Below are positions 9,883-58,154 of a stretch of 64,000 bases of DNA, in pieces. This stretch comes from Patescibacteria group bacterium (GTDB taxonomy: Bacteria; Patescibacteriota; Patescibacteriia; XYB2-FULL-38-15), in the NCBI GenBank assembly GCA_041650995.1, contig JBAZJZ010000001.1, positions 363,302-427,301 of the forward strand, given 5' to 3'. Under the pieces are notes generated by a model that saw only the letters and a program-made list of their open reading frames with translations, did no database searches and was not told where the DNA came from. The translations under genes were made by a program, and so were the position numbers. Every line of letters begins with the position of its first letter. The stretch's first letter is position 1.

Positions 9883-9918
9883 AATAAAAAAGCCCGCCAT
9901 CCAGAGTGAATGACGGGC
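9883..9918 (-). terminator. terminator of GC-rich cassette G1
   Basis: gcccgtc...ggcgggc stem followed by TTTTTTATT on the minus strand. Confidence 0.45.
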
Positions 9919-9953
9919 AGAGACGGGCGTCCTAGACCGAGCGAATCCCGAGC

Positions 9954-10568
9954 CTAGAACTTCCGGCAGGAGGCCGAACCGTGATTCGGAAGAGCGCTAC
10001 CGCCCCAGCGCCAATCAAGCACGGTCCGACCGCTGATCACACGAAGACAGGCCACATCCTCGCGCTGCTTACGACGAACGGAACCCGGCAGGTCCATGAC
10101 GTGGCCGTCGCGGCGCGTGGTGTCGCTCACAACCTCGGGGTACTGGATGTAGGCCGAAACGGCTTCGAGCACCGTGAGGCCGAGTTCGTTCTTTGCGAAG
10201 TTGTGGCGACAGTCGACCACCGAACGGTTCCGGTTTTGACGGCCATCCTGCATCCGAATCCAAAAGGGAACTTCTGGATTACTGTGCAGAGCGTTCCACA
10301 ATTCGAAGGTTTTGTCGCTGCCGTCGAAGTCGATGTTGCCGCAAGCGCAGAGCCTCTTGAGCGGCAGCCGCGACTCCACGAGCACGAGGAGCGGAAAATC
10401 CTTGTCCGGAAGACGAAGCTGCGGAGGAATCTTGGGAATGGTCGCGAGGTACTTCTCGAAACTCGGAAAATCGAGCTCATGGCCGATGCCCGGCTCGCTG
10501 TTTCTCAAACGCGCCGTCTGGATCTCGTGCAGTTGGGCCACGTGGCCAAGATCGAAAAGGTCTCCCAT
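9954..10568 (-). CDS. G1: GC-rich cassette protein of unknown function (about 204 aa)
   Basis: AGGAGAAAAAAG-ATG Shine-Dalgarno; third-codon-position GC very high on the minus strand; own promoter and terminator. Confidence 0.5.
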   Translation of the reverse strand: MGDLFDLGHVAQLHEIQTARLRNSEPGIGHELDFPSFEKYLATIPKIPPQLRLPDKDFPLLVLVESRLPLKRLCACGNIDFDGSDKTFELWNALHSNPEVPFWIRMQDGRQNRNRSVVDCRHNFAKNELGLTVLEAVSAYIQYPEVVSDTTRRDGHVMDLPGSVRRKQREDVACLRVISGRTVLDWRWGGSALPNHGSASCRKF

Positions 10569-10621
10569 CTTTTTTCTCCTTCCATCCCGCGGCAGTTCCG
10601 GAGACAGCGCTTTGGCCATAA

Positions 10622-10703
10622 CCGGAATAAACCGAAGGACAGCTCGTCGCCGAACCCATTCCGGCGAACATTTTATTATTGTCTGTTTAAACAAAAAAGT
10701 CAA
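10622..10703 (-). promoter_or_regulatory. G1 promoter (TTGACT-17-AATAAT) and GC-rich hairpin leader
   Basis: minus-strand TTGACT at 10703-10698 and AATAAT at 10680-10675; ccggaat..attccgg hairpin at 10622-10664. Confidence 0.4.
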
Positions 10704-10738
10704 GCGTCTTGGCGCTCGGCTTTCACAAAAAATTAAAT

Positions 10739-11416
10739 TTATTTTATCACGCTTCCCTTAAACTTTTCTCCCTTTAAAAATTTTCTAAAGTTATCTAAAT
10801 GATTTGCTTTCATAATTACAACTTCCATTCCCCATTTTTCCGCAAAACGCGAAGCAATTGGATCAAACGGCGCGTGCATGCGCGGAATCCATTTACTCCC
10901 GACCATTTTCCTGTACTCTGCCCATTTTAGATTTTTGATAGGCCTGGCGTTTTTAAACTTTTTAGGATTTTTATCATAAACGTAATCCGTATTGGTTAAA
11001 TTTATTACTTGTTTCGCACCAAAATTTTTTGCCCACAAAATCGCGTCTTTGTCTGACGAACACCCCGGCAACCAGCCAGAAGCAATTATTATTTTTTTAT
11101 TAGTTTTAATTTTCTCTGTCGGATTAATAGCCACTTTTTCATACGCGGCCTCGCTAAAAATCACCCTCACTAACTCTGCGTTCAATTTTGTCGCGGCAAT
11201 ACCAAGCCAATCTAAATCAACGTTTTTAATCTTTGCTAATTTTTTCGCCGCCGCGTTATATTTTTTATTTGTCCCTCCTCCGCCGGCCACTATTACCGCC
11301 CGCCCGCCATTTTTAATAAAATCCAAAATCGCCCGACGAAAATTTTTTAAAAAAATCGTGTCCACTTCGTCTGGCACGATAACTGATCCGCCGAGAGAAA
11401 CTATTAATGTTTTCAT
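10739..11416 (-). CDS. amino-acid-kinase family protein, archaeal-type UMP kinase-like
   Basis: MKTLIVSLGGSVI...VIVAGGGG glycine-rich kinase motifs. Confidence 0.55.
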   Translation of the reverse strand: MKTLIVSLGGSVIVPDEVDTIFLKNFRRAILDFIKNGGRAVIVAGGGGTNKKYNAAAKKLAKIKNVDLDWLGIAATKLNAELVRVIFSEAAYEKVAINPTEKIKTNKKIIIASGWLPGCSSDKDAILWAKNFGAKQVINLTNTDYVYDKNPKKFKNARPIKNLKWAEYRKMVGSKWIPRMHAPFDPIASRFAEKWGMEVVIMKANHLDNFRKFLKGEKFKGSVIK

Positions 11417-11678
11417 TTATTTATTTTGTGAATTGTTTATAAAGTTCCTCAAATAATCTTTTTTGTTCTGTCGGATCATAACCCTCCCGACGTATGCGGG
11501 CTTTCTCCCCACGAATAAATTTTTTAACACTGCGGCTAAATTTTCTTTTTGACATAAATTTTGTCTCTCTTTGCACGCTCGGCCGACATTACTTTAAAAG
11601 GCGACGGCGTACGGTATCGCGTTTTTCCCTTTCCACAACGTGCACACGAATATTTTTTCATCTTCTTACAAATAATTT

Positions 11679-12272
11679 TTAGAGCGCGTTCTCCACGCCG
11701 CCCACAGTAATGATTGCGCCACCAACTTTAGGAAATTGTTTCGCGGTTTGGGAAAGTTGCGCTCGAAACATTTGAGCCCGACAATTATCCGCGGCTAAAA
11801 CAAATATCTCTGGAGAAAAATCAACATAAGCCATGCCAATCATAATCTTTACGCTATGGATTTTTATCTCGTCTCCAATGTACGGCGCCTGGCCCGTTTC
11901 CCCTTTCTTTTGTTCGCGATAATTTATCATTTCTTCTTTGCTCGGTATGGCTGAATAATATCCTTGTTCTATCTCGGTAGCACTTGGACCAAATAAAATT
12001 TCTTCAAATGCCCTACGTTTCACAATAAGATCGTTCGGGACAGTCCGCTCTATCGGAAAAACTGCCTTGCAATCGGCCTGATTTTGATTTAAATTTTTAT
12101 TCCCAAAAAATATTTTTACAGTCGTCTCTTTTGCTTCAACTTTTTTTGCTTCCTGAACCGCGTCTTTTAAATCAGCGCTCGCCTCTTTCATTCCCCCAAT
12201 ATAACCAAAAAGCATCGCTGCAGCAGCAATTAGCAAAATAATACTAGCAAATATTAAGAGCTTCTTTTTCAT
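11679..12272 (-). CDS. secreted or lipoprotein, GerMN-like domain
   Basis: signal peptide; weak GerMN-like pattern. Confidence 0.35.
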   Translation of the reverse strand: MKKKLLIFASIILLIAAAAMLFGYIGGMKEASADLKDAVQEAKKVEAKETTVKIFFGNKNLNQNQADCKAVFPIERTVPNDLIVKRRAFEEILFGPSATEIEQGYYSAIPSKEEMINYREQKKGETGQAPYIGDEIKIHSVKIMIGMAYVDFSPEIFVLAADNCRAQMFRAQLSQTAKQFPKVGGAIITVGGVENAL

Positions 12273-12357
12273 AAAATTTTATTTTTTCTAGCTCTACAAT
12301 AATTTTAACCTCAAATCCGACTTTGAGCAACAGCTCGCAAATAAAGCTAACCGACTT

Positions 12358-14265: not shown

Positions 14266-14333
14266 AAAATTAAATTAAAATTACTTCTTATAATTATACT
14301 AAATTTTTTACCAAAATACCATTGTGCCAGCTC

Positions 14334-14362
14334 TTGACAAAATAAAAAAACAATGCCAAGAT
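14334..14362 (+). promoter_or_regulatory. G2 promoter (TTGACAAAA-17-CAAGAT)
   Basis: consensus -35 hexamer with 17-bp spacer. Confidence 0.45.
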
Positions 14363-14386
14363 GAGGCGAGGAAAAGGAGGTATTTT

Positions 14387-14758
14387 ATGGCCCAATCAGC
14401 GCGACCGGAGACTCCCAGACTGTATCGCCTCACGATTCGCCGCCCATCATCCGATCCAAAGACGCCAGAACTCATGGACATCGTCAGCGAAGCGTTTCTG
14501 TTCACCAAGCCGGACGGATTCCCCATGACCGAAGCCATCGCCAAACAGAGAGCCACGAGAGTCCAGGAAACACTGCCGCCGGGCTGGGAAGCCAAGGTCA
14601 CGGAAGAGCCCTTCCTTGTCACGCATGGCACGCCGGCAATCGTCGGCACCTGCCGACGCGCGACTTGCCAGAATTTCGGCATTGGGGCTCCAAATCGCTT
14701 CCGCTGCCCCGAGTGCGGCGAGCTGACCGCGATCGAGATGGTCGCAACCGTAGAGTAG
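14387..14758 (+). CDS. G2: GC-rich cassette protein (123 aa) with C-terminal Cys4 zinc-ribbon
   Basis: AAAAGGAGG-N6-ATG; C..C...C..C at the C-terminus; high GC at third codon position. Confidence 0.55.
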   Translation: MAQSARPETPRLYRLTIRRPSSDPKTPELMDIVSEAFLFTKPDGFPMTEAIAKQRATRVQETLPPGWEAKVTEEPFLVTHGTPAIVGTCRRATCQNFGIGAPNRFRCPECGELTAIEMVATVE

Positions 14759-14766
14759 CGACTTCA

Positions 14767-14821
14767 CCCGAACCGATTGACTGAGTTTAGGATAACTCTC
14801 CATCGGCTCGGGTATTTTTTA
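14767..14821 (+). terminator. G2 terminator
   Basis: cccgaaccgattg...catcggctcggg stem followed by a T-run. Confidence 0.5.
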
Positions 14822-14859
14822 TAAAAAATTCGAACCTTTAAAAATCCGAATTTTTAAAT

Positions 14860-15186: not shown

Positions 15187-15188
15187 AC

Positions 15189-15398: not shown

Positions 15399-15428
15399 AA
15401 TTAGATATTAAATTTAAAATTTTATAAT

Positions 15429-15929: not shown

Positions 15930-15951
15930 AATTTTATTATTTAATTACTAA

Positions 15952-16420: not shown

Positions 16421-16990
16421 ATGGATTACGAATTAGAGCGACAATTAATCAAAAAAGCCAAGGAAAACGCTGCCGCTTTTGAGGAGCTATACAACCATTA
16501 TCTCCCCAAAATCTACGGTTTTCTCCTAAATCGCACCGGCCAGAAAGAACTGGCCGAAGATTTGACGTCCGAAGTTTTTGCCAAAGCCCTGGCTAATATT
16601 TCTAAATTTAACGACCGAGGCGTTCCTTTTGCCGCCTGGCTTTTTAGAATTGCGCGAAATACTTTAATTGACTGGAGCCGCAAAAAGAAAGAGATTCTAA
16701 CAGATGCCGTAGAAATATACGAACCAAAACCTGACCGCGCGGAAGTGGGAGCTGTATCCGGACTTATACAAGATGAAAAAAAAGTACTCCTCAGAAAAAC
16801 CATGGGAAACCTTCCCGAAAAATACCAGACGGTTTTATCTTTAAAATTTTTTGAAGAGTTAAGTAATGACGAGATCGCGGATATCGTCGGTTGTCAAAAA
16901 AATGCCGTAGCTGTAAGAGTTCACCGCGCGCTTCGTTTAATGAAAAAACATCTGATCGGCAATCCTGAATTTTTAGAAATCAATTTTTAA
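16421..16990 (+). CDS. ECF-type RNA polymerase sigma-70 factor
   Basis: sigma-70 region 2 (FxxWLFRIARN) and region 4 HTH. Confidence 0.8.
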   Translation: MDYELERQLIKKAKENAAAFEELYNHYLPKIYGFLLNRTGQKELAEDLTSEVFAKALANISKFNDRGVPFAAWLFRIARNTLIDWSRKKKEILTDAVEIYEPKPDRAEVGAVSGLIQDEKKVLLRKTMGNLPEKYQTVLSLKFFEELSNDEIADIVGCQKNAVAVRVHRALRLMKKHLIGNPEFLEINF

Positions 16991-16995
16991 CAAAC

Positions 16996-18864
16996 ATGTT
17001 TCAATTTTTAAATAGAAAATCAAAAAAATTGATCACGGCCTGGGAAGAAAAAAAACCAGCCGAGCTTAATGCTGAAGAAAAAATGCTCTACGCCCTGGCA
17101 GAGAAAATCCAAAATGCGCGGCTCGCGCGGCCAGGAGAAATTTTTGTTTCCGAAACGGAAAAAAATCGCATCAGGGAAAATTTTTATCATAAATATTTTA
17201 ATCTTGTCGGTTCCAAGGCAACTGCTCAAAATCTAATAAAGGAGCAGGCCAGAACCCAAGACGGAAGAAAGGAAAAACTTATGACTCTGCCCTTTAATTT
17301 AAAGCGAGCCACTCTCGCGTGGGCTGGTGCGGCCGTAGTAGTGGTCGCCTTGGCGCTCGGAATTTATTTCACTCGCGGCCCGGCCGGAACGGGTGGAATT
17401 TTTAACGGAGCTCTCGCGGCACATTTATCGATCGCTGACGGACAAGTTGAAACCTGGAATGGCAGTGACTGGCAAGAGGTTGCTGTCGGGGCCACCTTAT
17501 CCGGTCAGTCGCAGCTTAGAACGGGTGAAAACAGCAAGGCAGTTTTAGAATTTGATGAAGGCAGCGCCCTACGGCTCGACGAAAACACTCACGTAATTTT
17601 AGAAGAAGTCAATAATAAAAATATTTCTGTCGCGCAAGTGGTCGGCGAAACTTATAGCCGCGTTAATAAAACTTCAGGCTTAACTTATAAAGTAAAATCC
17701 GGCGGCGCGGAAACAACGGCGCTTGGCACGGCTTTCGGCGTAGCCACGGAAAAATCAAACTGGGTTAAAAAGGGCGAGAAAAAAGTTATCGTTAAGGTGG
17801 TGGAAAGTAAAGTAAAAGTAAAAATTATAAAAAATGACGAAACCCTGGAAAAAGAAGTCAGTGAGGGCGAAGAATTAATTGTTGATATGACAAAACCGAT
17901 TGAAGACACTGCAAAAAAAGTTCCTCTGCCAAAAGAAGAAACTGCGCAAGACGGATTTTATGCCTGGAACCGCCAAGAGGATAGTGAAAAATCTTATCCT
18001 CTCGGAGTTTTATCCGATACCACAGCGCCAGAAATAAATATCTCTGAACCTTTAGACGGAATCACAACAGAGTTGGTTCGCGTCGCTGTACGCGGCACGA
18101 CCGAGACCGGAGCAAAAGTTTTTGTGAATGGCACCTTGGCGGAAAACAAAGACGGATCATTTGAAAAAATTATTGATTTGAAAGTCGGCGCGAATACAGT
18201 TGAAGTAAAAGCAAAAGATGACTCGGGAAACGCTACCACCAAAAAAATTACTGTCACAAGAAAAGGCGAAGCAGTCCAAGCCTCCCCTCTTTATCTCAAG
18301 GGTTGGGCTGATTCTGACGGCGTGCATCTTTCTTGGTCGCTTTCGGGAATTACCGCGCCAAAAGGATTTAAACTGGTAAAATCGCTCACGGCTTACCCGA
18401 CTTATCCTGGCAACTCGGCGGTTTACCTAAATCCCGATGTCAGAAGCTATCTCTGGCAAATCAATGATGGAAAAACCTGGCATTTCAGAGTCTGCGTTTA
18501 TGAAGGCGGGGCTTGCGGCACATACAGTAATGATTTAAAAATCACTGCAAAATCAAGCAGCGCGACAAACAACGAAATTTACGGGACATTGTCTTTGACC
18601 GGCTGGATAAAAACAGGAAAAATTGTTGCTCTCTCTTGGGCACTTTCTGGAAATTCCCCGTACGGATATAAATTGGTGAAATCCACAGAACCAAATCCTG
18701 TTTATCCCGGAAATGAATATGTTTACCTCTCTTCACCGGACTTGAAAGGAAGTTATGTCTGGGACATGAAAGAAGCCGGCACATATCACTTCCGCGTTTG
18801 TGCTTATAATGGAGGCGGCGGATGCGTCTTCTATAGCAATGACTACTCTATAACAGTGCAATAA
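16996..18864 (+). CDS. putative anti-sigma factor (FecR-like) with two C-terminal tandem Ig/FN3-like domain repeats
   Basis: single TM after a cytoplasmic N-terminus; internal repeat LSW.LSG...KLVKS...YPGN..VYL...HFRVC.Y.GG.C occurs twice. Confidence 0.45.
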   Translation: MFQFLNRKSKKLITAWEEKKPAELNAEEKMLYALAEKIQNARLARPGEIFVSETEKNRIRENFYHKYFNLVGSKATAQNLIKEQARTQDGRKEKLMTLPFNLKRATLAWAGAAVVVVALALGIYFTRGPAGTGGIFNGALAAHLSIADGQVETWNGSDWQEVAVGATLSGQSQLRTGENSKAVLEFDEGSALRLDENTHVILEEVNNKNISVAQVVGETYSRVNKTSGLTYKVKSGGAETTALGTAFGVATEKSNWVKKGEKKVIVKVVESKVKVKIIKNDETLEKEVSEGEELIVDMTKPIEDTAKKVPLPKEETAQDGFYAWNRQEDSEKSYPLGVLSDTTAPEINISEPLDGITTELVRVAVRGTTETGAKVFVNGTLAENKDGSFEKIIDLKVGANTVEVKAKDDSGNATTKKITVTRKGEAVQASPLYLKGWADSDGVHLSWSLSGITAPKGFKLVKSLTAYPTYPGNSAVYLNPDVRSYLWQINDGKTWHFRVCVYEGGACGTYSNDLKITAKSSSATNNEIYGTLSLTGWIKTGKIVALSWALSGNSPYGYKLVKSTEPNPVYPGNEYVYLSSPDLKGSYVWDMKEAGTYHFRVCAYNGGGGCVFYSNDYSITVQ

Positions 18865-19903: not shown

Positions 19904-19932
19904 TTGACAAAAATCAAATAATATTTTAAATT
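19904..19932 (+). promoter_or_regulatory. G3 promoter (TTGACAAAA-17-TAAATT)
   Basis: consensus -35 hexamer, 17-bp spacer. Confidence 0.45.
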
Positions 19933-19956
19933 TAAAATCCGGAAAGGAGGGGAAAA

Positions 19957-20400
19957 ATGGAAGACGGAACGATGCTGCTCGACAGGGAAAAGCGGAAAGC
20001 GGAAATTGGCGGACGCCTCCAAGAATACGAGCGGGAAAATCCCGAAATCTGGCGAGTCATCCTCAGGGTTTTCAGAGTAGAAACGACCTACTCCAAATAT
20101 GATTTCCTGGAGGCAATGTGGTCATTGTTCGAAGGTCTGCGAATGGTCACAGAACTGCTCGGACAACTACCACTGATCCCGGCCGAGTCAGCCGAAAGGG
20201 TCTGGACCGAACTGCACGAAGCGCCTTCCGACGTGCTAAACAGCGAGGACTTCGACCGTTTTCGCTGCATCATCGAGTTTGGTTTCAGGACAGCGCTAAA
20301 TGCAGTAGTCCGGTCACCTGACATCAAGAAGCGGACCGAACGCATCTTCGCCATGATTCTCCGGATGGTTCAAATCGAACTGGACCGAAAACCAGACTGA
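19957..20400 (+). CDS. G3: GC-rich cassette protein, helical, unknown function (147 aa)
   Basis: GGAAAGGAGGGG-N5-ATG; high GC at third codon position. Confidence 0.55.
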   Translation: MEDGTMLLDREKRKAEIGGRLQEYERENPEIWRVILRVFRVETTYSKYDFLEAMWSLFEGLRMVTELLGQLPLIPAESAERVWTELHEAPSDVLNSEDFDRFRCIIEFGFRTALNAVVRSPDIKKRTERIFAMILRMVQIELDRKPD

Positions 20401-20415
20401 AAAGGGAGGAATAGC

Positions 20416-20458
20416 AAAGAGGCACCGACACGGCAAGCCTCTTTTTTTATTTTTTTAT
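20416..20458 (+). terminator. G3 terminator
   Basis: aagaggc...gcctctt stem followed by a T-run. Confidence 0.55.
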
Positions 20459-20465: not shown

Positions 20466-20494
20466 TTGACAAAAAATAAAAATTAAATTAAGAT
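20466..20494 (+). promoter_or_regulatory. G4 promoter (TTGACAAAA-17-TAAGAT)
   Basis: consensus -35 hexamer, 17-bp spacer. Confidence 0.45.
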
Positions 20495-20521
20495 TCATTG
20501 TTCCCCGGAAAGGAGAATTCC

Positions 20522-20995
20522 ATGGAAACCACGAGCGCCGACAAGCGCCAAAATCCCGTTCAAAATCAGTTTGAGCGTCTGGTCGCTGCCTTGCGGATGG
20601 AAGAATCCGCCGTGGCCGACTGGCTCGAGGAAACGCGGGACGACTTGGCCGGTATTTTCGGCGAGACGGAACTTGCCCTGGCCTGGGAAAACATCTCTTT
20701 TCTCTCCTACATCTGGGTGATGCTCGGCACGATCGAAAAGATGAGGGAGAAGGGCCGGTTGCCCACGATCACCGTCAACTCCTACCTACAAGCCACTCGC
20801 GAGTGGAACGACCGGGAAATCCGCGCTCAACTGGAGTGTGAGATCCTCAAGGCCATGCAGACGTTCCAACGCGAATCTTACGAAGACTTCGAAACTCTCC
20901 TCAGCGGTTCTCCTTCCGAGAACCAGAGGGCAGAAAGCTGTTGCCGCGGGAAGCTAGCAAAGCTCCTGCGTTTGGTCAGACTCTCTCAGCAGTAA
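20522..20995 (+). CDS. G4: GC-rich cassette protein, helical, unknown function (157 aa)
   Basis: AAAGGAGAA-N4-ATG; start METTSADKR. Confidence 0.55.
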   Translation: METTSADKRQNPVQNQFERLVAALRMEESAVADWLEETRDDLAGIFGETELALAWENISFLSYIWVMLGTIEKMREKGRLPTITVNSYLQATREWNDREIRAQLECEILKAMQTFQRESYEDFETLLSGSPSENQRAESCCRGKLAKLLRLVRLSQQ

Positions 20996-21010
20996 GAAAG
21001 GAGGCAAAAC

Positions 21011-21050
21011 GAAAAGCATCCCCGCTTCACGAGGATGCTTCTTTTTTTAT
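21011..21050. terminator. G4 terminator (bidirectional with the 21059 gene)
   Basis: aagcatcc..ggatgctt stem followed by a T-run. Confidence 0.6.
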
Positions 21051-22945: not shown

Positions 22946-23224
22946 AATTTTAAAAAATTAATTTAAATTTAAATTTTTGCGTATTTTTTCTATCTGCTCT
23001 GCCTCTATCTTTTTTATTGCCTTTTCCAAAACCGCCCTCTGGCGGCGCGATAATTTAAACATAATATCAGAGAACTTTTTATAAGCCTCCTCTGCTTTTA
23101 AAATTTTCTCTCGTGTGGATAAATTTTTTCCTTCAGCCATACGCTTGTGGATAGATCTTTTTATATATTCTATCATATTTTTAAAAATGAGTAAAAAAAT
23201 CCGGCAGATGAAATATCCGCCGAA

Positions 23225-23551
23225 CTAGATTTTGGAAGGCCATTCCCGAAATTCGATCTCAACCCATCCTTCATCTCCGCCCACTCCGCCCTCAATTGGC
23301 TTAACTCGGAGATAAATTGGAGCATTGCCGCCAGCCTGAATATCCGCGCAAACAAGACGAACGAGACACCGCGTAGTAAGCTCCGGATCGACGAACAGCA
23401 AGTAATCCAACGGCGGTGCGAAACGGACAAGGGACAGGCGATTTACGAGGTGCGAAAAGGCGATCTCTATCGCCCGACGAATTTCGCAGTTGATTTCCGG
23501 AAACTCTCGCGCGAGAATTTTCCTGACTTGTCTTCCTGAAAGGCCGCCCAT
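23225..23551 (-). CDS. G9: higher-GC cassette protein of unknown function (108 aa)
   Basis: GGAGGTAAGGAA-ATG; TTGACAAAA promoter. Confidence 0.45.
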   Translation of the reverse strand: MGGLSGRQVRKILAREFPEINCEIRRAIEIAFSHLVNRLSLVRFAPPLDYLLFVDPELTTRCLVRLVCADIQAGGNAPIYLRVKPIEGGVGGDEGWVEIEFREWPSKI

Positions 23552-23602
23552 TTCCTTACCTCCTTTTTTAGAAATGATTCGGATGACCACCCCCTTAATC
23601 GG

Positions 23603-23631
23603 AAATTAACAAAAAAGACGACTTTTGTCAA
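23603..23631 (-). promoter_or_regulatory. G9 promoter (TTGACAAAA-17-TAATTT)
   Basis: minus-strand TTGACA at 23631-23626. Confidence 0.4.
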
Positions 23632-35152: not shown

Positions 35153-35241
35153 AATATTTGATAAAAACAACCAATTACTTAATTACTACCAATTACTTAA
35201 TTACAACGAGGTAATTAGGTAATTGCTATTTTATTATTTTG

Positions 35242-36802: not shown

Positions 36803-36828
36803 ATTTTCTTATATTTACTGATTAGACA

Positions 36829-37014
36829 ATTATATCAAAAAATTAAAATTAAAACAAAGCCCCCGAGTGATGCCCGGAGTGACACGCTTTAGCGTGTTAC
36901 TTACCGAAATAACAGCCTAAAGGCTGTCAGTCCGATTTATTAAAAATAAAAAAATGCCCCGTTCCATTTCTTCGGCTTTGTGAAAGCTTCAGATTTGAAA
37001 CGGGGCCAAGAGAC
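36829..37014. repeat. conserved structured flank, copy 1 (G5 terminator hairpins plus outward TGATATAAT promoter)
   Basis: about 80% identical to 56973-57176; three hairpins; extended -10 on the minus strand at 36837-36829. Confidence 0.7.
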
Positions 37015-37080
37015 CGAAAGTCCAAGGATCCGAGTGACCCGGCCTTTTTGAAGGGCCGAGTTACCCAGGATCCAAGGACC

Positions 37081-37542
37081 CTACTTGCGACGGAGCACCC
37101 GGAAGCCGCCGCCCCAGTCGTAGCCGAGCCAGCGCCAGTCCTGGCACCAGCCGTCGTCGTGCCAGCGGACGCACGCCACGAGCCCGCGGTCGACCGGGAA
37201 CCGCCAGTCCGGGAAGACGAAGACGACCTTGCCGCGGAGAGCGGCAGGGACCTCGTCCTGGTGGGCGAGGAGGAACTCGCAGTCCTCCTTGCCGAGGTTG
37301 GCGCCGAGCCTCTCGGCGCGGGCGACCATCACGCGGCCGACCACCGAGGTCTCGCCCTCCCAGAGGAAGGAGAGGATCTCGTAGGTGCGGCCGCCGATGG
37401 TCATCTCGGTGGGGAGGGAGGACTTGACGAGCGTCTCGGCGAACTCCCGCACCGCCTCGGTGTTGTCCGAGGAGACGAGTGCCGAGAACAGTTCGTCGCC
37501 GATCTCGCGCTGCAGATGGGCCGTAGAACGCAGAGTATCCAT
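37081..37542 (-). CDS. G5: GC-rich cassette protein, paralog of G8 (153 aa)
   Basis: shared block LPTEMT.GGRTYEILSFL...LGKEDCEF.LAHQDE.PAALRGK.VFVFPD with G8. Confidence 0.55.
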   Translation of the reverse strand: MDTLRSTAHLQREIGDELFSALVSSDNTEAVREFAETLVKSSLPTEMTIGGRTYEILSFLWEGETSVVGRVMVARAERLGANLGKEDCEFLLAHQDEVPAALRGKVVFVFPDWRFPVDRGLVACVRWHDDGWCQDWRWLGYDWGGGFRVLRRK

Positions 37543-37784
37543 TGCCGTTTCCTTTTGCCTCCTCTTTCGAGAAAGCGCACTCCTCGCCGACCTGGCAAAG
37601 AGGAAGCGCCGGTTTCCCAGCCTTCTTTCCAAATTTTATTATTCTTCGAGCGGAACGGAGCGAAGTCGAGAAGCGGTTCTCGACACCCCGCCGAATTGGC
37701 GGGTTGCTCGAACAATAAAATAGAGAAAGAAAACCGGGAAATTAACCAAAATTTCGCTTAAAAAGAACTATTTACTAACAATTA

Positions 37785-37813
37785 AATATACCATATTTTA
37801 ATGGTTTTGTCAA
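37785..37813 (-). promoter_or_regulatory. G5 promoter (GGGGTTGACAAAA-17-TATATT), followed by about 230-nt structured leader
   Basis: minus-strand TTGACA at 37813-37808, TATATT at 37790-37785. Confidence 0.5.
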
Positions 37814-37827
37814 CCCCATTTTTCTAT

Positions 37828-37888
37828 GTCATTCCCGCGAAAGCGAGAATCCAGATTACTGGATCCCCGGGTCAAGCCCGAGGATGAC
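37828..37888. mobile_element. MITE-like double-hairpin repeat, copy A
   Basis: GTCATTCCCGCGAAAGCGAGAATCCAG-ATTA-CTGGATCCCCGGGTCAAGCCCGAGGATGAC; terminal inverted repeats GTCAT(T/C)CCC / GGGGATGAC. Confidence 0.65.
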
Positions 37889-37894
37889 AAAATA

Positions 37895-37925
37895 AAAACC
37901 CGACTTTCGTCGGGACTCCGCCTTT
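37895..37925 (-). terminator. terminator after hydrogenase small subunit
   Basis: cccgacgaaagtcggg followed by a T-run on the minus strand. Confidence 0.5.
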
Positions 37926-37942
37926 AAAATCAAATAAAAAAA

Positions 37943-46507: not shown

Positions 46508-46586
46508 GTAACGGGTAACGCGTAACGGGTAACGCGTACAAGCGTATCAAAAATTACCAATTACTAATTACCAATTACCAATTACT
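46508..46586. repeat. tandem heptanucleotide repeats (GTAACGS)x4 and (CAATTAC)x4-5 filling the tsf-rpsB spacer
   Basis: direct reading of gtaacgggtaacgcgtaacgggtaacgc and attaccaattactaattaccaattaccaattact. Confidence 0.8.
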
Positions 46587-47379
46587 CCGATAAATTATTT
46601 TTTTCTTCCTTCACCTCTTCTGCTTTTGCTTCTTCCTCTTCCACAACGACCGGGGCTGCCGGTTTTTCCGGAGCCGCACCTCTTTTTGCTTCAAACTCCG
46701 CCTTCCCTTCTTTCACGGCCGCGGCCACGAGCCCAACCATCATTTCAATTGCTTTTACCGCGTCGTCGTTTGAGGGAACCGGATAATCAACGTCATCCGG
46801 ATTGATATTTGTGTCACATAACGCGACAACCGGAACCTTTCTTTTTCTCGCTTCAGCCACCGCGGTTTTTTCCGCTTTGACATCAACGACAAAAATCGCT
46901 TCAGGCAATTTTTTTAAAGTTTCAATGCCGCCAACCAATTCTTCCAACTTCACGATTTCTTTTTGAAAATTCAGCTGCTCTTTTTTGGTGTATTTCGCGA
47001 GTCCGCCGGTCGCTGTCTTATTTTTCAAATCAGTGAAGCGGTCCGTTACGGTTTTGATGGTTTTGAAATTCGTGAAAGTTCCTCCGAGCCAACGTGTCGT
47101 GACATAAGGCATGCCGGCATCTTTCGCGTAGCGTTTCACAATTTCTTTGGCCTGCTCTTTTGATCCAACAAAAAGAACAACTCCGCCCGCGGCTGTTGTT
47201 TTTTTAATAAAATCTAGCGCCTCTTTTAATTTTTTTGCCGTTTCTTCTAAGTTGATGATGTGGATATCGCTCCGCTCTCCGAAAATATACGGCTTCATTT
47301 TCGGATGCCATTTAGAAGCCTTGTGCCCAAAATGAACACCGGCCTGGAGCATTTCCAACATTGTTGGGATCTCTGACAT
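46582..47379 (-). CDS. rpsB: 30S ribosomal protein S2 (acidic C-terminal extension)
   Basis: LEAGVHFGH motif; start at MSEIPT. Confidence 0.9.
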   Translation of the reverse strand: MSEIPTMLEMLQAGVHFGHKASKWHPKMKPYIFGERSDIHIINLEETAKKLKEALDFIKKTTAAGGVVLFVGSKEQAKEIVKRYAKDAGMPYVTTRWLGGTFTNFKTIKTVTDRFTDLKNKTATGGLAKYTKKEQLNFQKEIVKLEELVGGIETLKKLPEAIFVVDVKAEKTAVAEARKRKVPVVALCDTNINPDDVDYPVPSNDDAVKAIEMMVGLVAAAVKEGKAEFEAKRGAAPEKPAAPVVVEEEEAKAEEVKEEKNNLSE

Positions 47380-47581: not shown

Positions 47582-47633
47582 TAAAAAAACGCCCTGCCGA
47601 GCCAAGCGTCGAAACACTTGACCTCGGCAGGGC
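47582..47633 (-). terminator. G6 terminator
   Basis: gccctgccgag...ctcggcagggc stem; T-run on the minus strand. Confidence 0.55.
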
Positions 47634-47639
47634 TGAAGG

Positions 47640-48332
47640 TCAGGGCCCGTCGTGACCGTAGACCCTGAAGCGCTCACCGGTCTCCGGCCGTTCGTAGGCC
47701 AGATACCAGGAGACGCCCACGCTGAGCGGATCCTCGCCCGGACGACGTGAACGTGTCGCGTCCACCTCACCGAGCATCAGATCCGTCGGTCGGACCTCCT
47801 CCTTGCGACGCGACGGGAGAAGGAGAATCTCCTCGCGCTTGAGTGCGGTCGGCAGCATGGGTGAGGTGTAGTAGAAGTCGCCCTGGGCCGTCACGTAGAT
47901 CTTGAGCGGCCAGAGCGACTCGCCGCCGTCGTGCGTCCGCAGAACCTTGATCTTGCGAACCAGGTGATCGGTCGGCTGAACCTGATCCATCGGACGGCCC
48001 GGCCGCGGACAGAGTCTGTCCCACTCATCGTCCGAGAGAGGGACATCACAGAAGAAGTTCGGGCAGACACCCAGGATAAGCGGACTGCCGCAGTTCCTAC
48101 AGCGTTCCGGCGTACCACCACAGGTGTGCAGCATCACGCCCCCGCCGATGACGATCTGGCTGGCCTGACACTGAACGTACCGAGCCACCTTGACCACTCG
48201 TACGAAGGGCTCCACGCACTCATTGCCGTAGATGCTGTTCTGGAACAGCACCCGGGCGTAGTGGGCCATGACGCGCCTCTCGGCCGCGAAGCAGCCGACG
48301 CAGATCTCGTTCTGGCTCATCTTCTCCTCCAT
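47640..48332 (-). CDS. G6: GC-rich cassette protein, Cys-rich (multiple CxxC zinc-ribbon-like pairs), 230 aa
   Basis: CVGC..C..C, CGGTPERCRNCG, CPNFFC; high GC at third codon position. Confidence 0.5.
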   Translation of the reverse strand: MEEKMSQNEICVGCFAAERRVMAHYARVLFQNSIYGNECVEPFVRVVKVARYVQCQASQIVIGGGVMLHTCGGTPERCRNCGSPLILGVCPNFFCDVPLSDDEWDRLCPRPGRPMDQVQPTDHLVRKIKVLRTHDGGESLWPLKIYVTAQGDFYYTSPMLPTALKREEILLLPSRRKEEVRPTDLMLGEVDATRSRRPGEDPLSVGVSWYLAYERPETGERFRVYGHDGP

Positions 48333-48380
48333 CCTCTGGCTGTTCCTCAGCCAAGGTCCAAGTCCATCTTGGAACTTATA

Positions 48381-48409
48381 AAAATATCACAGAAAATTAT
48401 TTTTGTCAA
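48381..48409 (-). promoter_or_regulatory. G6 promoter (GGGGTTGACAAAA-17-TATTTT)
   Basis: minus-strand TTGACA at 48409-48404. Confidence 0.4.
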
Positions 48410-50414: not shown

Positions 50415-50437
50415 AAAATAATAAATATAATAAAAAA

Positions 50438-50462: not shown

Positions 50463-50469
50463 ATAGAAC

Positions 50470-50547
50470 TTGACAAATTAATCTTTTTATAATATTCTAA
50501 AAACATCAAACAGGGTGGCCTTTCGTTTTTGGCGCGCGCCGAAAACG
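50470..50547 (+). promoter_or_regulatory. G7 promoter (TTGACAAAT.. with TATAAT/TATTCT) and leader hairpin cgtttttggcgcgcgccgaaaacg
   Basis: -35 at 50470-50475; perfect palindrome at 50524-50547. Confidence 0.4.
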
Positions 50548-50622
50548 TGAAGGAAGGTGGCCCTAAATCTCGGCCCGACGGACGGGACGAGTTAAAATAG
50601 GGAAGGTTGAGGAGGATAGGGA

Positions 50623-50832
50623 ATGTTGAATCCGATTTGGGTCGACGGAATACGCCTCGTCGACGACAATGGCCAACCGCTTTGGGCGGATCGTGGCCCC
50701 ATCGAAATTTCGTCGAGGCGACCGCATCAGCCCGGTGGCGAAGGGAATGACGACATGTTCTTCCCGGACGACGAAGAAGCGGCCAGGCGGCGAAGCGACG
50801 CCCGGAAGAGAGACCGTCGGCGCCAGCAGTAG
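50623..50832 (+). CDS. G7: GC-rich small cassette protein (69 aa), acidic then Arg-rich tail
   Basis: GAGGAGGATAGGGA-ATG Shine-Dalgarno; followed by about 150 nt GC-rich untranslated region and a terminator. Confidence 0.4.
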   Translation: MLNPIWVDGIRLVDDNGQPLWADRGPIEISSRRPHQPGGEGNDDMFFPDDEEAARRRSDARKRDRRRQQ

Positions 50833-50987
50833 TATCCCGTCCCACCATCAACGTGAGAGCTGCGAGCTTCGCTCGCCCACTCTCCGTTTCAAGTTCGCGC
50901 CCCCCCTCCCGGAAGCGGCGCGAAGCCCGCGTAGCGGAAAACGGGGAACACGAGTTCCCCGCCCCCCCCTCCTCGCTACCGGGCCCC

Positions 50988-51050
50988 AGCCCGTGGATTG
51001 TTTTGGAGAGATCTCCCCTCCTTCAAGCAGTCCACGGGCTCCTTTTTTTA
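50988..51050 (+). terminator. G7 terminator
   Basis: agcccgtgga...tccacgggct stem followed by a T-run. Confidence 0.5.
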
Positions 51051-51065
51051 TGCTACAATAATCGC

Positions 51066-51950
51066 ATGACAATAAAACAATCTCTCATTTTGGCGACAAA
51101 AATTTTACAAAAAAATAAACTATCCTCCCCTGCTCTGGACGCCGAAGTCCTCCTATCTTTTGTTATAAAAAAACAAAAAGAATTTTTGTACGCACATTCT
51201 GAAAAAAAATTAACCGCGGCGCAATTTTTAAAATTTAAAAAACTGATCGCCCGGCGTTCTAAACATGAGCCTATCGCCTACATCATTGACCACAAATTTT
51301 TCTACGGCCTGAATTTTTTTGTTGATAAAAATGTTTTAATCCCCCGCCCGGAAACGGAAACACTAGTTGAAACTGTAATCGATAAAAATCCAACTGCAGT
51401 CGTTGACGTGGGAACCGGCAGCGGCGTTATTGCCATCTCACTCGCTTATCATCTACCCAAAACGAAAATTTTTGCCACGGAAATTTCGCCGTCCGCGGCC
51501 AAAATTGCGCAAAAAAATATTCTTCATCATAAAGTCACCATTACTTTGCTTCGCGGAAATCTTCTTGAACCTTTTTTAAAAAATTTAAAATCAAAAATAA
51601 AAAACTTAAAATCTTTAATCGTTGTCGCCAATCTCCCCTATCTCAAAACTCGTCAATGGAAAAAAACTCTGCCAGAAATAAAAAAATATGAGCCACGGCA
51701 AGCTCTGGACGGCGGTGAAGATGGTTTGAATTATTACCGCGAACTTTTACAGCAAATCGAATTACTAATTACCGATTACCAATTACCAATTACTTCAATC
51801 TTCGAAATTGATCCATCTCAAAAAAAAACCATTGCGAAATTGGTCAACTGCCGCTTCCCTGCCGCGAAAATTGAAATAAAAAAAGACCTCGCCGGCCGAG
51901 ATCGGGTTGTTATATTTAAAATAAATCCCAAAAAACAATCAATTACTTAA
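51066..51950 (+). CDS. prmC: release factor glutamine methyltransferase PrmC/HemK
   Basis: VGTGSG SAM motif, NLPY (NPPY-type) motif, C-terminal DLAGRDRV; start at MTIKQ after the G7 terminator. Confidence 0.75.
   Translation: MTIKQSLILATKILQKNKLSSPALDAEVLLSFVIKKQKEFLYAHSEKKLTAAQFLKFKKLIARRSKHEPIAYIIDHKFFYGLNFFVDKNVLIPRPETETLVETVIDKNPTAVVDVGTGSGVIAISLAYHLPKTKIFATEISPSAAKIAQKNILHHKVTITLLRGNLLEPFLKNLKSKIKNLKSLIVVANLPYLKTRQWKKTLPEIKKYEPRQALDGGEDGLNYYRELLQQIELLITDYQLPITSIFEIDPSQKKTIAKLVNCRFPAAKIEIKKDLAGRDRVVIFKINPKKQSIT
51759..51793 (+). repeat. five tandem heptamers (NAATTAC) inside the prmC coding sequence
   Basis: gaattac taattac cgattac caattac caattac. Confidence 0.8.
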
Positions 51951-52007
51951 TTACTATTTACCAATTACTGAAATCTGCAAATGGTAATTAGTAACTGGTA
52001 ATTACGG
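51939..52007. repeat. CAATTAC/GTAATTA heptamer repeats arranged as an inverted repeat in the convergent spacer
   Basis: caattacttaattac...tggtaattagtaactggtaattac. Confidence 0.7.
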
Positions 52008-52017
52008 CACTTAAAAA

Positions 52018-53118: not shown

Positions 53119-53135
53119 AGCTTCGAGTATAATTC

Positions 53136-53834: not shown

Positions 53835-53904
53835 AAGAATTCTCTGTTTAGAGATTAATTAATAATGATTAGATTCTAACAATAAACCCGAAATTAGTCA
53901 AGAA

Positions 53905-55002: not shown

Positions 55003-55146
55003 AAAATAAAAAATCCAAATGTCAAAATCCAAATACCAAATCAAGCCCAAAATCCAAAAATTTAGTCATTTGGATTTGATTTGACATTTGAGCTTTGGGT
55101 TTTGGATTTTAAATAACAAAGACAGTAAAAAATCACTTAAAAACTA

Positions 55147-56013: not shown

Positions 56014-56031
56014 ATTTTTATATAGTTAAGT

Positions 56032-56871
56032 TTAATGCAAAGGCTTCGGCGCGGCCAAGGTAATAAATTGCAAAACATCCGCGTGATCTGAAACTATTTT
56101 TATCGTCTTTTCATCTAGATCTTCGTTGTGGCGCGCCATAAATTCCAAAACTTCTCCATAGTTTTTAAGGTCTCTTCCTTCGCCGAGAAATCCGCTGCGA
56201 ATCAGAATATAATTTATAAATTTAAGCAATTGCTTTTCAGCTGAAGCAAGAAATTTATATTTTTCTCCCGCGTCCTCTGTTAAATTCGGCTTTTCCACCA
56301 TTAATTTTTGCAGAGCAACTGTTTTTTCAGGACTAAGCGCCAAAACAACACGCGGCATTTGAACTTCGCCCGCTATTCCGTCCGGATCTTCAAAATATTT
56401 AATCGAAGCCATTTTTCTTCCGGCCAATTTTTCAAAATTTTTATCCGCCTTGCGGCGTAAAACCATTTCATCCGAAGAAGTCGTGGCATCAATCGCGAGA
56501 TTTATAAATCTGTCTGTGTCTTCATCATGAAAAGTTACGACAAAATCCGCGCCATTCATTACATCGTCATATTCTGAAGTTTTTTGGATTGAAAAAACAT
56601 TGTCACCAAACCAGCCGTGAACTTTTATCCCTTCCATCAAAACATACTCCAAAGCGACCGCCTCGCTTCCTCGTTCATGAATATACCTCGGCGATTTTTT
56701 AATTTCAGAAACTTTTTGCAAATCCGCGGCTACCTCTTCTCGCTTATACGGCCGATCAACAAAATCTTCCGGGACAAACGCAGAGTCTCTCCAAGACCGA
56801 GCAATCTCCCGATTAAAATTTTCGTCGTCGGTTTGACCCCAAACTCTCCGGCGATCCAGCGCCGCCACCAT
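56032..56871 (-). CDS. hypothetical protein; start taken at MVAALD after a GAAGGAAG Shine-Dalgarno
   Basis: ORF. Confidence 0.4.
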   Translation of the reverse strand: MVAALDRRRVWGQTDDENFNREIARSWRDSAFVPEDFVDRPYKREEVAADLQKVSEIKKSPRYIHERGSEAVALEYVLMEGIKVHGWFGDNVFSIQKTSEYDDVMNGADFVVTFHDEDTDRFINLAIDATTSSDEMVLRRKADKNFEKLAGRKMASIKYFEDPDGIAGEVQMPRVVLALSPEKTVALQKLMVEKPNLTEDAGEKYKFLASAEKQLLKFINYILIRSGFLGEGRDLKNYGEVLEFMARHNEDLDEKTIKIVSDHADVLQFITLAAPKPLH

Positions 56872-56972
56872 TCTTCCTTCAATTCCTACTGCCATAATTG
56901 GAATAGCAGGCTTTAGCCTGCGCTTATTTTTCTTACTTCGACGCGAGCTAAAGCTCGCTAATCTATTTTTAT

Positions 56973-57176
56973 ATTATATCAAAAAAATTAAATTAAAACA
57001 AAGGCACTCTGGCAAAAAAAATTCGGCGTGACACCCGGAGTGACACCCTTTAGGGTGTTATTTCAAACAACATTGTAACAGCCTAAAGGCTGTCAGTCCG
57101 ATTTATTAAAAAATAAAAAAACGGCCCCGCTTCATTTCCTTTGCTTTGTGAGCATTAGATTTGAAACGGGGCCAAG
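56973..57176. repeat. conserved structured flank, copy 2 (G8 terminator hairpins plus outward TGATATAAT promoter)
   Basis: about 80% identical to 36829-37014. Confidence 0.7.
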
Positions 57177-57189
57177 GAACCTTCTGTCT

Positions 57190-57250
57190 GTCATTCCCGC
57201 GAAAGCGGGAATCCAGATTACTGGATCCCCGGGTTAAACCCGAGGACGAC
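57190..57250. mobile_element. MITE-like double-hairpin repeat, copy B
   Basis: GTCATTCCCGCGAAAGCGGGAATCCAG-ATTA-CTGGATCCCCGGGTTAAACCCGAGGACGAC. Confidence 0.65.
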
Positions 57251-57264
57251 ATTGAGGTTGTGGG

Positions 57265-57789
57265 CTACGCGGCTTTGCGACGGAGCACCCGAGCGCCGTC
57301 GTCCCAGCCGACGTCGAGCCAGCCCCAGTACTGGTACCAGCGGTCGCCGCGCCAGCGGAGGTACGCCACGCACTCGCGGCCGACGGGGTACCGCATGTCC
57401 GGGAAAACGAAGACGATCTTGCCGCGGAGTGCGGCGGGAATCTCGTCCTGGTGGGCGAGGATGAACTCGCAGTCCTCCTTGCCGAGGTAGGCGCCGAGCT
57501 TCTCGGCGCGGGCGACCATGGTGTGGCCGTGGACGCGCTCCTCGCCCTCCCGGAGAAAGGAGAGGATCTCGTAGGTGCGGCCGCCGACCGTCATTTCGGT
57601 GGGGAGTTCCAGCTCCGTGGGCTTCGCGGGCTGCCTCGCGATGAGTGCGCCATCGAGCGTCGTGGCCAACAAATCCTGATGCAGAATCCAAAATTGGGCC
57701 AACTCCGGCTCCATGTCCCGCGGCAGAGAGCGCAGCACTGCCGCACCGAGTTCCGCAAACTGATCCGTTCCGAGTTTCTTCTTTCCCAT
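57265..57789 (-). CDS. G8: GC-rich cassette protein, paralog of G5 (174 aa)
   Basis: AAGGAGGAAGCG-ATG; conserved block shared with G5. Confidence 0.55.
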   Translation of the reverse strand: MGKKKLGTDQFAELGAAVLRSLPRDMEPELAQFWILHQDLLATTLDGALIARQPAKPTELELPTEMTVGGRTYEILSFLREGEERVHGHTMVARAEKLGAYLGKEDCEFILAHQDEIPAALRGKIVFVFPDMRYPVGRECVAYLRWRGDRWYQYWGWLDVGWDDGARVLRRKAA

Positions 57790-58045
57790 CGCTTCCTCCT
57801 TGGCTTATCCTGGTTCATCTCTTTAGGAGAGGCAGGACTTAAGGAGAGGCAGGACTTACCAAAAGCGGCTGGAACCCTTTCCCAGCCTTGTTTTGATTGT
57901 GCTCCCCTCTTAAGATAAGAGGGGCTGGGGGCGTTATGAATCTTTGTTTTTAAATCTACAACTCATAACCCCTCTTAATCTCCCCTTACCTTAAGGGGAG
58001 AAACCAGAGCACTGCCAAAAGAAAGGTAGAAACTTCCAACGTTTC

Positions 58046-58074
58046 ATAATATTCCATTATTACCTTTTTGTCAA
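58046..58074 (-). promoter_or_regulatory. G8 promoter (GGGATTGACAAAA-17-TATTAT), followed by about 270-nt hairpin-rich leader
   Basis: minus-strand TTGACA at 58074-58069. Confidence 0.5.
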
Positions 58075-58087
58075 TCCCTCTTTTGAT

Positions 58088-58154
58088 GTCATTCCCCGGC
58101 TTGACCGGGGAATCCAGAAATAGGAACTGGATCCCCGATCGGGTCGGGGATGAC
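58088..58154. mobile_element. MITE-like double-hairpin repeat, copy C (variant loops)
   Basis: GTCATTCCCCGGCTTGACCGGGGAATCCAG..CTGGATCCCCGATCGGGTCGGGGATGAC. Confidence 0.65.

Follow-up and report, generated by a model that had tools for sequence, protein, structure and literature searches.

Nine short, G+C-rich genes, here designated G1 to G9, were identified as self-contained single-gene units in 64,000 nucleotides of chromosomal DNA from a Patescibacteria group bacterium (assembly GCA_041650995.1, contig JBAZJZ010000001.1, positions 363,302 to 427,301 of the forward strand); this whole stretch is referred to as the window. The nine units lie within ~48 kb and make up 9 of the ~70 genes of the window. 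They are scattered among housekeeping genes, as a first-pass annotation of the sequence had described; the loci include rplJ, rpsB, gyrB and the prfA-prmC and hydS-hydL gene pairs. The interpretation we favour, to which we give a probability slightly above one half (about 0.55), is that they are moron-like, self-contained accessory cassettes from a GC-rich gene pool that is shared among Patescibacteria.

Composition and coding status of the nine genes

All nine open reading frames (ORFs) proposed in the first-pass annotation were confirmed with their coordinates, the start of G6 aside; this had been placed at 48332 but is probably the ATG at 48320, because the homologues are 226–227 aa in length. 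The G+C content of the genes was 0.53–0.69 against 0.416 for the window, 12–28 points above the host, and a 500-nt profile showed a GC island at every G locus. At third codon positions (GC3) values ranged from 0.52 to 0.94, compared with a mean of 0.39 (SD 0.048) and a maximum of 0.51 in the 62 other called genes. The deviant composition reported for the nine ORFs was therefore upheld with no overlap in GC3; separation from the 62 other genes was complete (Mann–Whitney U = 558 = 9 × 62, p = 7e-7), with z-scores of +2.7 to +11.4, and G9, which has the weakest GC3 (0.52), is the marginal case. The encoded proteins were rich in arginine and poor in lysine, K/(K+R) being 0.08–0.33 versus 0.55–0.89 in housekeeping genes, and A occupied only 0.01–0.06 of third positions in G1, G5, G6 and G8.

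All nine ORFs are genuine protein-coding genes, belonging to a Patescibacteria metagenome-assembled genome (MAG), and are neither RNAs nor assembly chimeras. A strong three-base periodicity was evident, with GC3 far above the value at second codon positions (GC2; for example 0.94 versus 0.45), and the ratio of non-synonymous to synonymous divergence (dN/dS) was 0.18–0.77, compared with 0.04–0.16 for the neighbouring genes. Rfam (at gathering thresholds and at E ≤ 1) and ARAGORN identified nothing in the islands, the only Rfam match being the L10 leader, which lies outside them. On these grounds, and on the strength of the coding signal, the reading of the islands as RNA genes was rejected. The possibility of chimeric assembly, raised with the first-pass annotation, also fails, as the junctions between gene and flank recurred in NCBI, JGI, ENA and Logan data, in at least five independent assemblies.

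Promoters, leaders and terminators

At the sequence level, a −35 and a −10 element separated by a 17-nt spacer were present in all nine units. The −35 hexamer was a perfect TTGACA in eight, each in the arrangement TTGACA-17-TAnnnT, and the weaker TTGACT in G1, where it overlaps a terminator-like hairpin and T-run of the preceding gene. The extended core TTGACAAAA occurred at eight exact sites in the window against 2.35 expected, a number reached in none of 100 shuffles, and seven of the eight sites were located upstream of G genes (G2, G3, G4, G9, G5, G6 and G8). TTGACA alone was found 32 times in the window, and was followed directly by AAA in eight of these. The further extensions GGGGTTGACAAAA upstream of G5 and G6 and GGGATTGACAAAA upstream of G8 were present as originally described. 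The shared extended −35 promoter claimed for the whole set was thus only partly retained: the spacer is common to all nine units and TTGACAAAA to seven, but G1 has TTGACT, G7 has TTGACAAAT and the −10 hexamers are mediocre, matching 3–5 of 6 consensus positions. Homologues elsewhere retained TTGACA, often within TTGACAAAA, together with a TG-extended −10.

Each unit was also said to possess a long, GC-rich leader. This is true of G5 (~236 nt), G8 (~250 nt), G7 (~118 nt) and G1 (~100 nt), but the leaders of G9 and G6 are ~45–54 nt and those of G2, G3 and G4 are ~18–21 nt. Part of the G8 leader is a palindromic insert resembling a miniature inverted-repeat transposable element (MITE), which was found at other positions in relatives. 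A strong Shine-Dalgarno sequence of the AGGAGG type and a terminator consisting of a long hairpin followed by a T-run were visible in all nine units, in agreement with the earlier description.

Occupancy of the sites in related genomes

Related sequences were taken from GCA_964649075.1 (L001), the Falkowbacteria MAG GCA_016214745.1 (L003), and L020 and L033, which derive from one JGI sample (3300029288). L001 matches the gene order of the window collinearly across the nusG–rpmE interval (protein identities 75–97 %) and contains a G8 orthologue beside gyrB (GC 0.67, GC3 0.89) and a G7 orthologue between prfA and prmC (GC 0.66). Next to the latter is an extra GC-rich gene of 185 aa (GC3 0.83), which has no counterpart in the window. 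L033 has G1 at full length, flanked by the UMP-kinase-like gene and rplJ (GC3 0.74 versus ~0.38), and L003 has a G5 orthologue between hydS and hydL (GC3 0.92, in a genome of 42 % GC). Relatives bearing the same genes with ordinary composition, which would have spoken against the first-pass annotation, were not what was found: the orthologues of G1, G5, G7 and G8 at the same sites all keep the GC excess.

An empty site was detected for G5. A single base (TAA-t-ATG) separates the hydS stop codon from the hydL start in L020, and the two products are 95 and 94 % identical in amino acid sequence to HydS and HydL of the window. In the more distant L003 (89 %) the site is filled and has the same layout as in the window, including the hydS terminator and the outgoing promoter. 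The distant genome being filled and the closer one empty, either precise loss or movement between lineages must have occurred. Variable occupancy among relatives was thus seen at two sites, in the empty site of L020 and the extra unit of L001. G1, G7 and G8 occupied the same site in the available relatives, and syntenic relatives for comparison were lacking for G2, G3, G4, G6 and G9; two G6 homologues were located between HSP20 and tsaD, not beside rpsB.

G+C content across hosts and the proposed origin

The G+C richness is a property of the gene families and not of the host genome, the hosts ranging from 33 to 62 % GC. Relatives of G5 and G8 had a GC of 0.51–0.69 in eleven genomes of GC 0.34–0.50; relatives of G1 had a GC3 of 0.74–0.82 in genomes of 42–50 % GC (0.82 in a 50 % genome), and those of G6 0.82–0.86 in genomes of 45–48 % GC. 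The G1 relative in L030 (62 % GC) is compositionally unremarkable, yet it is located behind TTGACAAAA with a TG-extended −10, and one G5/G8 member was found on a contig of 55–60 % GC that also encodes LpxC. GC-rich genomes therefore exist in which these genes look native.

In our reading the nine are lineage-restricted, fast-evolving genes for accessory proteins that have been added to conserved housekeeping arrays. Each is put together as a cassette with a TTGACA −35 (TTGACT in G1) and A-tract, a spacer of 17 nt, a strong Shine-Dalgarno and an intrinsic terminator with a long stem and, where it is placed between co-directional genes, is followed by a fresh promoter for the downstream gene. 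The cassettes vary in presence, position and content among related genomes. Most simply, the pool from which they come would circulate horizontally among Patescibacteria and would be native in composition to GC-rich genomes (L030 and L008, for instance), and some force or turnover would prevent drift toward host composition. Horizontal circulation is an inference, as are the strength of the promoters and the function of the products.

Several observations weigh against this proposal. G1, G7 and G8 are syntenic in relatives whose flanks have diverged to a synonymous divergence (dS) of ~0.7–1.5, and are therefore old residents or have been replaced in place, rather than being recent arrivals; neutral drift should have lowered the GC3 of old residents, yet it stands at 0.86–0.94. 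The empty site in L020 could reflect a loss, though hydS and hydL are also adjacent in three distant relatives. The tsaD gene, only 70 nt from a G6 homologue, does not have reduced divergence, and this lack of hitch-hiking argues against transfer by flank recombination. In favour of the proposal, over 13 AT-rich loci a consensus promoter was found at 16 of 23 GC3-rich ORFs versus 17 of 294 others (p = 6e-13), and TTGACAAA at 15 of 23 versus 6 of 294 (p = 1e-15), but this association is inflated because many of the loci were chosen for carrying one family. Finally, no phage, integrase, transposase or reverse transcriptase gene was found among 40 annotated window ORFs, and no att- or attC-like site or target-site duplication at any cassette, so that the single insertion mechanism once suggested for the set is not supported. 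The units share no end repeat, nor are they bracketed by repeats, with the exception of a 65-nt element around G8.

Selection and gene conversion as alternatives

At four-fold degenerate sites, identity between G1 and its L033 orthologue was 0.79 (flanks 0.46–0.63; rplL 0.78), between G8 and its L001 orthologue 0.77 (flanks 0.45–0.70; rpmE 0.77), between G5 and its L003 orthologue 0.73 (flanks 0.36–0.59) and between the G6 homologues of L032 and L034 0.87, against 0.43 in the tsaD flank. In these four syntenic pairs the four-fold sites were more conserved in the G gene than in the flanks, despite less conserved proteins, and the syntenic orthologues kept a four-fold-site GC (GC4) of 0.88–0.96 beside flanks only 36–70 % identical at such sites. 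Among four-fold differences the ratio of C↔G to strong↔weak changes was 44:44 in G genes and 19:164 in flanks. Polarised changes in five close G5/G8 members comprised 6 from strong to weak, 4 from weak to strong and 12 from strong to strong. Two readings fit these data: either selection or biased conversion keeps the synonymous sites at G or C, or cassettes passed between lineages after the flanks had diverged.

The first of these would be expected if the genes were native and vertically inherited, with G+C held high by selection on the nucleic acid (for a stable or nuclease-resistant mRNA, or for a codon set) and with absences being ordinary losses. We consider this unlikely, though deserving of serious attention. 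The coding sequences (CDSs) of the G genes have predicted folding energies of −0.33 to −0.51 kcal/mol/nt, compared with −0.18 to −0.24 in housekeeping genes, but this approximately twofold stability per nucleotide is due to composition. The minimum free energy (MFE) of the CDS equalled that of synonymous-codon shuffles in seven of nine genes and was better only in G6 (z −4.0) and G3 (z −3.0), and selection for a specific mRNA fold was rejected. The polarised counts are small, and ribosomal protein genes, which are presumably highly expressed, do not have such codon use. Ordinary loss from native loci also sits poorly with a closer relative that is empty at hydS-hydL and a more distant one that is filled, with G6 homologues at another locus and with the extra cassette in L001.

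Homology between G5 and G8 begins with the conserved domain and extends without a break across the stop codon, 3′ untranslated region (3′UTR), terminator and outgoing promoter (37416-36829 versus 57606-56973, 76 % identity); their N-terminal halves and leaders are unrelated. In the shared C-terminal domain the two are 0.84 identical in nucleotide sequence, whereas each is 0.78–0.80 identical to its syntenic orthologue, and the same within-genome pattern was seen for L006a and L006b (0.89). The paralogues are closer than the syntenic orthologues, which points to conversion between copies within a genome. Were such conversion between paralogues, or allelic recombination, biased toward GC, it could drive high GC whatever the origin of the genes. 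As a general explanation this is improbable, since G1 and G6 are single-copy on the 567-kb contig (one match each) and no GC enrichment is seen in the housekeeping genes that flank the units; going from 0.4 to 0.9 is, to our knowledge, a shift far beyond any attributed to GC-biased gene conversion in bacteria.

Protein families and predicted fold

G8 is 100 % identical to the NCBI entry 'hypothetical protein WC445_02390 [Patescibacteria group bacterium]' on a 567,161-bp contig, and G5 corresponds to WC445_02275 on the same contig. Including the window's own entries, 43 homologues were found for G8, 28 for G1 and 3 for G6, nearly all being unnamed or Patescibacteria records. Of 1.84 billion cluster representatives, a profile of the G5/G8 domain matched 1515, in some of which the domain is repeated in tandem two to four times, and the domain constitutes a large uncatalogued family with no Pfam model. 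G5 had no exact match in a contig index. Pfam, PHROGs, PADLOC and NCBIfam returned nothing above threshold for any of the nine, and no match was found in PDB sequence profiles. Zinc-ribbons had been recognised in G2 and G6, for which the basis is Cys spacing (a CxxC...CxxC motif in the G2 protein) and, for G2, a sub-threshold Pfam match (E = 0.079). All-against-all BLASTP linked only G5 and G8, and an hhalign comparison of the G1 profile with the G5/G8 profile was not significant; the nine do not, therefore, form one sequence family.

AlphaFold (AF2) models of G8 and G1 were confident, with mean predicted local distance difference test (pLDDT) scores of 85 and 89, respectively, and cores above 95. 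Both models have a C-type-lectin-like fold, and the core of the modelled domain matches solved C-type-lectin domains. The products of G1, G5 and G8 are likely to be small, soluble, C-type-lectin-fold binding proteins; no signal peptide was apparent in their N-termini, and a J-domain is present in one distant relative. Sequence identity to characterised domains of this fold, i.e. the Bdellovibrio fibre tip Bd2740 (8oks), invasin/intimin and the diversity-generating retroelement (DGR) proteins TvpA and Mtd, was 6–8 %. Unlike in those systems, no fibre, adhesin, signal-peptide or DGR context is present here, and the proteins are small with variable helical N-termini.

The DGR proteins raise the possibility that the C-type-lectin C-termini are variable regions rewritten from a template repeat elsewhere in the genome. 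This is very improbable and was rejected on the evidence of the 64-kb window, where no reverse transcriptase and no third, template-like copy was found. Moreover, over its C-terminal 45 aa G8 has a single difference from P0002, a protein only 74 % identical overall, so that this is not the hypervariable part; such a mechanism would also leave unexplained the GC-richness of entire genes and the six other units. Although RNA genes often account for GC-rich islands in AT-rich genomes, and the islands here are overlapped by long antisense ORFs and have strongly structured UTR segments, the idea that the islands are chimeras with DNA of a GC-rich organism, or structured RNA genes with accidental ORFs, is scarcely credible given the lack of Rfam and tRNA matches, the periodicity, the protein families, dN/dS below 1, the confident folds, the AT-rich promoters and terminators contiguous with the ORFs and the recurrence of the junctions in independent assemblies.

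G1 of the window is without ~45 in-frame residues (REVEELIRRLTSGGVAG...KRLWDLGVG) that are present in nearly all aligned homologues. Some relatives of G8 (P0084, P0043, P0141 and P0149) have a second, different conserved module (...NFPLE...WEVVEYHFD...GYRLLGG...YGWLVLRK) with a similar helix-then-strands layout, which may represent the same fold in a more diverged form.

Comparison with phage morons, ORFans and integron cassettes

A full-text search of the literature found no description of this pattern. Morons are defined by their own promoter and terminator, a GC content unlike that of their neighbours and their addition relative to related genomes (PMC3594210). The analogy with morons made in the first-pass annotation is sound with respect to promoter, terminator, GC content and the absence of G5 from the same site in L020, but breaks down over residence in a phage. 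As in morons of the HK97 gene 15 type (Cumby, Davidson and Maxwell 2012, PMC3594210), single genes with a promoter and a terminator of their own are seen, for G5 at least, as additions between conserved syntenic genes; the units described here, however, occupy housekeeping loci of a cellular chromosome, six of the seven families scanned have no viral-contig relative, orthologues keep the GC offset in hosts that range from 33 to 62 % GC, and some units supply a promoter for the gene downstream. The viral-contig scans were empty for G1, G2, G3, G4, G6 and G9, and the sole match, to G5/G8, was likewise an island of high GC within an AT-rich contig. A phage origin was rejected on these scans; the 64 kb contain no phage genes.

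Acquired ORFans and genomic islets are also short, lineage-restricted, fast-evolving, atypical in composition and variable in presence. ORFans and recent acquisitions are generally reported to be more A+T-rich than the host genome, and the present genes, though ORFan-like, reverse this trend, being G+C-rich, dense and persistent, each with a near-consensus promoter. Integron cassettes, too, are single-gene units of varied and mostly unknown function that are gained or lost, but they are promoterless, bear attC and are arrayed next to intI, whereas the units here each carry a promoter and a terminator, are dispersed, and had no attC or intI that could be found.

Location of the units and accompanying features

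The coordinates of the units and of associated elements are given in Table 1. The window is otherwise ordinary chromosome, containing rplJ with its L10 leader, rplL, the UMP-kinase-like gene, rpsB, tsf, gap, pgk, two iPGM copies, a P-type ATPase, the small and large subunits of a NiFe-hydrogenase (hydS, hydL), prfA, prmC, rpmE, gyrB, nusG, ftsW, mraW, fpg and an extracytoplasmic function (ECF) sigma/FecR pair. The G1 unit is situated between the UMP-kinase-like gene and the rplJ promoter with the L10 leader, and a TG-extended −10 promoter for the next gene follows the G9 terminator.

Table 1. Coordinates of the G1–G9 units and associated elements in the window.
Feature	Position	Strand	Details
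G1 unit	9883..10703	−	TTGACT 10703-10698, 17-nt spacer, AATAAT 10680-10675; CDS 9954-10568, 204 aa; terminator 9918-9892
G2 unit	14334..14822	+	TTGACAAAA 14334; leader ~18 nt; CDS 14387-14758, 123 aa; terminator hairpin ~14766-14813, then T-run
G3 unit	19904..20448	+	TTGACAAAA 19904, −10 TAAATT; CDS 19957-20400, 147 aa; terminator ~20418-20448
G4 unit (directly after G3)	20466..21046	+	TTGACAAAA 20466, −10 TAAGAT; CDS 20522-20995, 157 aa; terminator ~21012-21046
G9 unit	23198..23631	−	TTGACAAAA 23631; CDS 23225-23551, 108 aa; terminator 23226-23198
hydS-hydL insert with G5	36803..37942	−	1140 bp; without counterpart in L020
hydS terminator in G5 segment	37914-37899	−	
G5 promoter	37813-37785	−	TTGACAAAA-17-TATATT, then ~236-nt leader
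G5 CDS	37081-37542	−	153 aa, GC3 0.94; conserved 3′UTR; terminator ~37006-36950, then two hairpins
Outward promoter toward hydL	~30 nt upstream of hydL ATG 36802	−	TGATATAAT
G6 unit (upstream of rpsB)	47585..48409	−	GGGGTTGACAAAA 48409, −10 TATTTT; CDS 47640-48320, 226 aa
G6 terminator	~47633-47592	−	19-bp stem
G7 unit (prfA-prmC interval)	50470..51050	+	TTGACAAAT 50470, −10 TATTCT; leader ~118 nt; CDS 50623-50832, 69 aa
G7 3′UTR	50833-51050	+	~200 nt, highly structured, terminator at end
G8 unit (beside gyrB)	57112..58155	−	GGGATTGACAAAA-17-TATTAT 58074-58046; leader ~250 nt; CDS 57265-57789, 174 aa
MITE-like palindrome in G8 leader	~58000-57904	−	
G8 terminator	~57173-57120	−	
Segment downstream of G8 terminator	56973..57111	−	homologous to G5-downstream 36829-36949; hairpins and outward TGATATAAT promoter, next gene 56895
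65-nt GC-rich repeat	37827-37889(−), 57189-57251(−), 58093-58155(−), 63703-63763(+)		TGTCATCC...GGAATGACA

One copy of the 65-nt repeat precedes the G5 promoter, two bracket G8 (one of them in the 3′UTR) and the fourth comes after a deaminase gene. In two copies the predicted fold is three hairpins enclosed by a closing stem, and the other two have different minimum-energy folds; RNA fold z-scores were −5.3 to −6.2, and differences between copies in hairpin arms 1 and 3 preserve pairing. Neither ARAGORN nor Rfam made a call on this repeat. The MITE-like palindrome (CTCCCCTTAAGGTAAGGGGAG...TCATAACGCCCCC...CTCTTATCTTAAGAGGGGAG) was also found at 9610-9650 and 10655-10840 in L003 and at ~3225-3330 in L033; its position in or around the cassettes varies by genome, and the 'GC-rich hairpin leader' is in part made up of this element.

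In L034 a tRNA gene is located just upstream of the G6 homologue (~7560-7900). Approximately 220 nt after the tRNA is a direct repeat of its own 3′ end (TTCCCCGTGGCGGTACCA); after this come a 65-nt-type repeat and then the G6 homologue's promoter. This arrangement looks like an att-like scar of integration next to the cassette.

The 3′UTR of the G5/G8 family is conserved (window 36950-37080 and 57112-57264; L001 4359-4560; L003 10505-10640) and contains YTYGG(A) motifs every 8–10 nt and a hairpin (GGTAACTCGGCC...GGCCGGGTCACT), and the leaders of the family share AAGGCTGGGAA ~60 nt upstream of the start codon. These conserved segments may represent a protein-binding or regulatory RNA. The G7 3′UTR had an MFE of −101.8, compared with −64.5 for shuffles (z −9.25), and ~130 nt of it are conserved in L001; it could be a 3′UTR-derived RNA or the remnant of a second cassette. 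The longest prmC ORF (50853-51950, +) begins with a GTG at 50853 and extends back through this 3′UTR, with the PrmC_N domain starting at residue 78. The real prmC start is probably the ATG at 51067, directly after a −10-like site (TGCTACAAT), in which case the leader would be close to absent.

The interval separating the G2 and G3 units contains a sigma/anti-sigma pair (16421-18864, +), in which a sigma factor of the ECF type (Sigma70_r2/r4_2) precedes a FecR-domain protein of 622 aa. The adjacent iPGM paralogues (29886-31460 and 31485-33047, −) are 72–79 % identical over stretches, and the pair is also present in L003. Short tandem repeats of the type CAATTAC(T/C)AATTAC were found at several gene ends (35165-35218, 46552-46591, 51760-51799 and 51935-51974).

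Significance for the variable genome of Patescibacteria

The cassettes pose an evolutionary question, namely how genes of 60–70 % GC, with a GC3 of up to 0.94, are kept inside genomes of 33–46 % GC, a retention that spans divergences over which neighbouring synonymous sites are near saturation. Either a GC-rich reservoir feeds a rapid horizontal turnover, or GC is held high locally by some force. A broader and rather doubtful extrapolation is that Patescibacteria share portable, insulated one-gene cassettes (promoter in, terminator, often promoter out) whose GC is actively maintained by selection on the nucleic acid or by biased conversion and is not a foreign signature in decay, and that many of these encode fast-evolving small proteins of the C-type-lectin fold, as would be expected for interactions with host bacteria or phage. 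In a more extreme and purely speculative version, the universal signals and GC-rich codons would fit the genes to being expressed inside a host cell of high GC.

Bacteria of the candidate phyla radiation have tiny genomes with many genes of no known function. A compositionally marked, self-expressing and rapidly evolving set of accessory genes would offer simple access to the variable fraction of such genomes, where involvement in dependence on other cells or in defence against phage is most likely.

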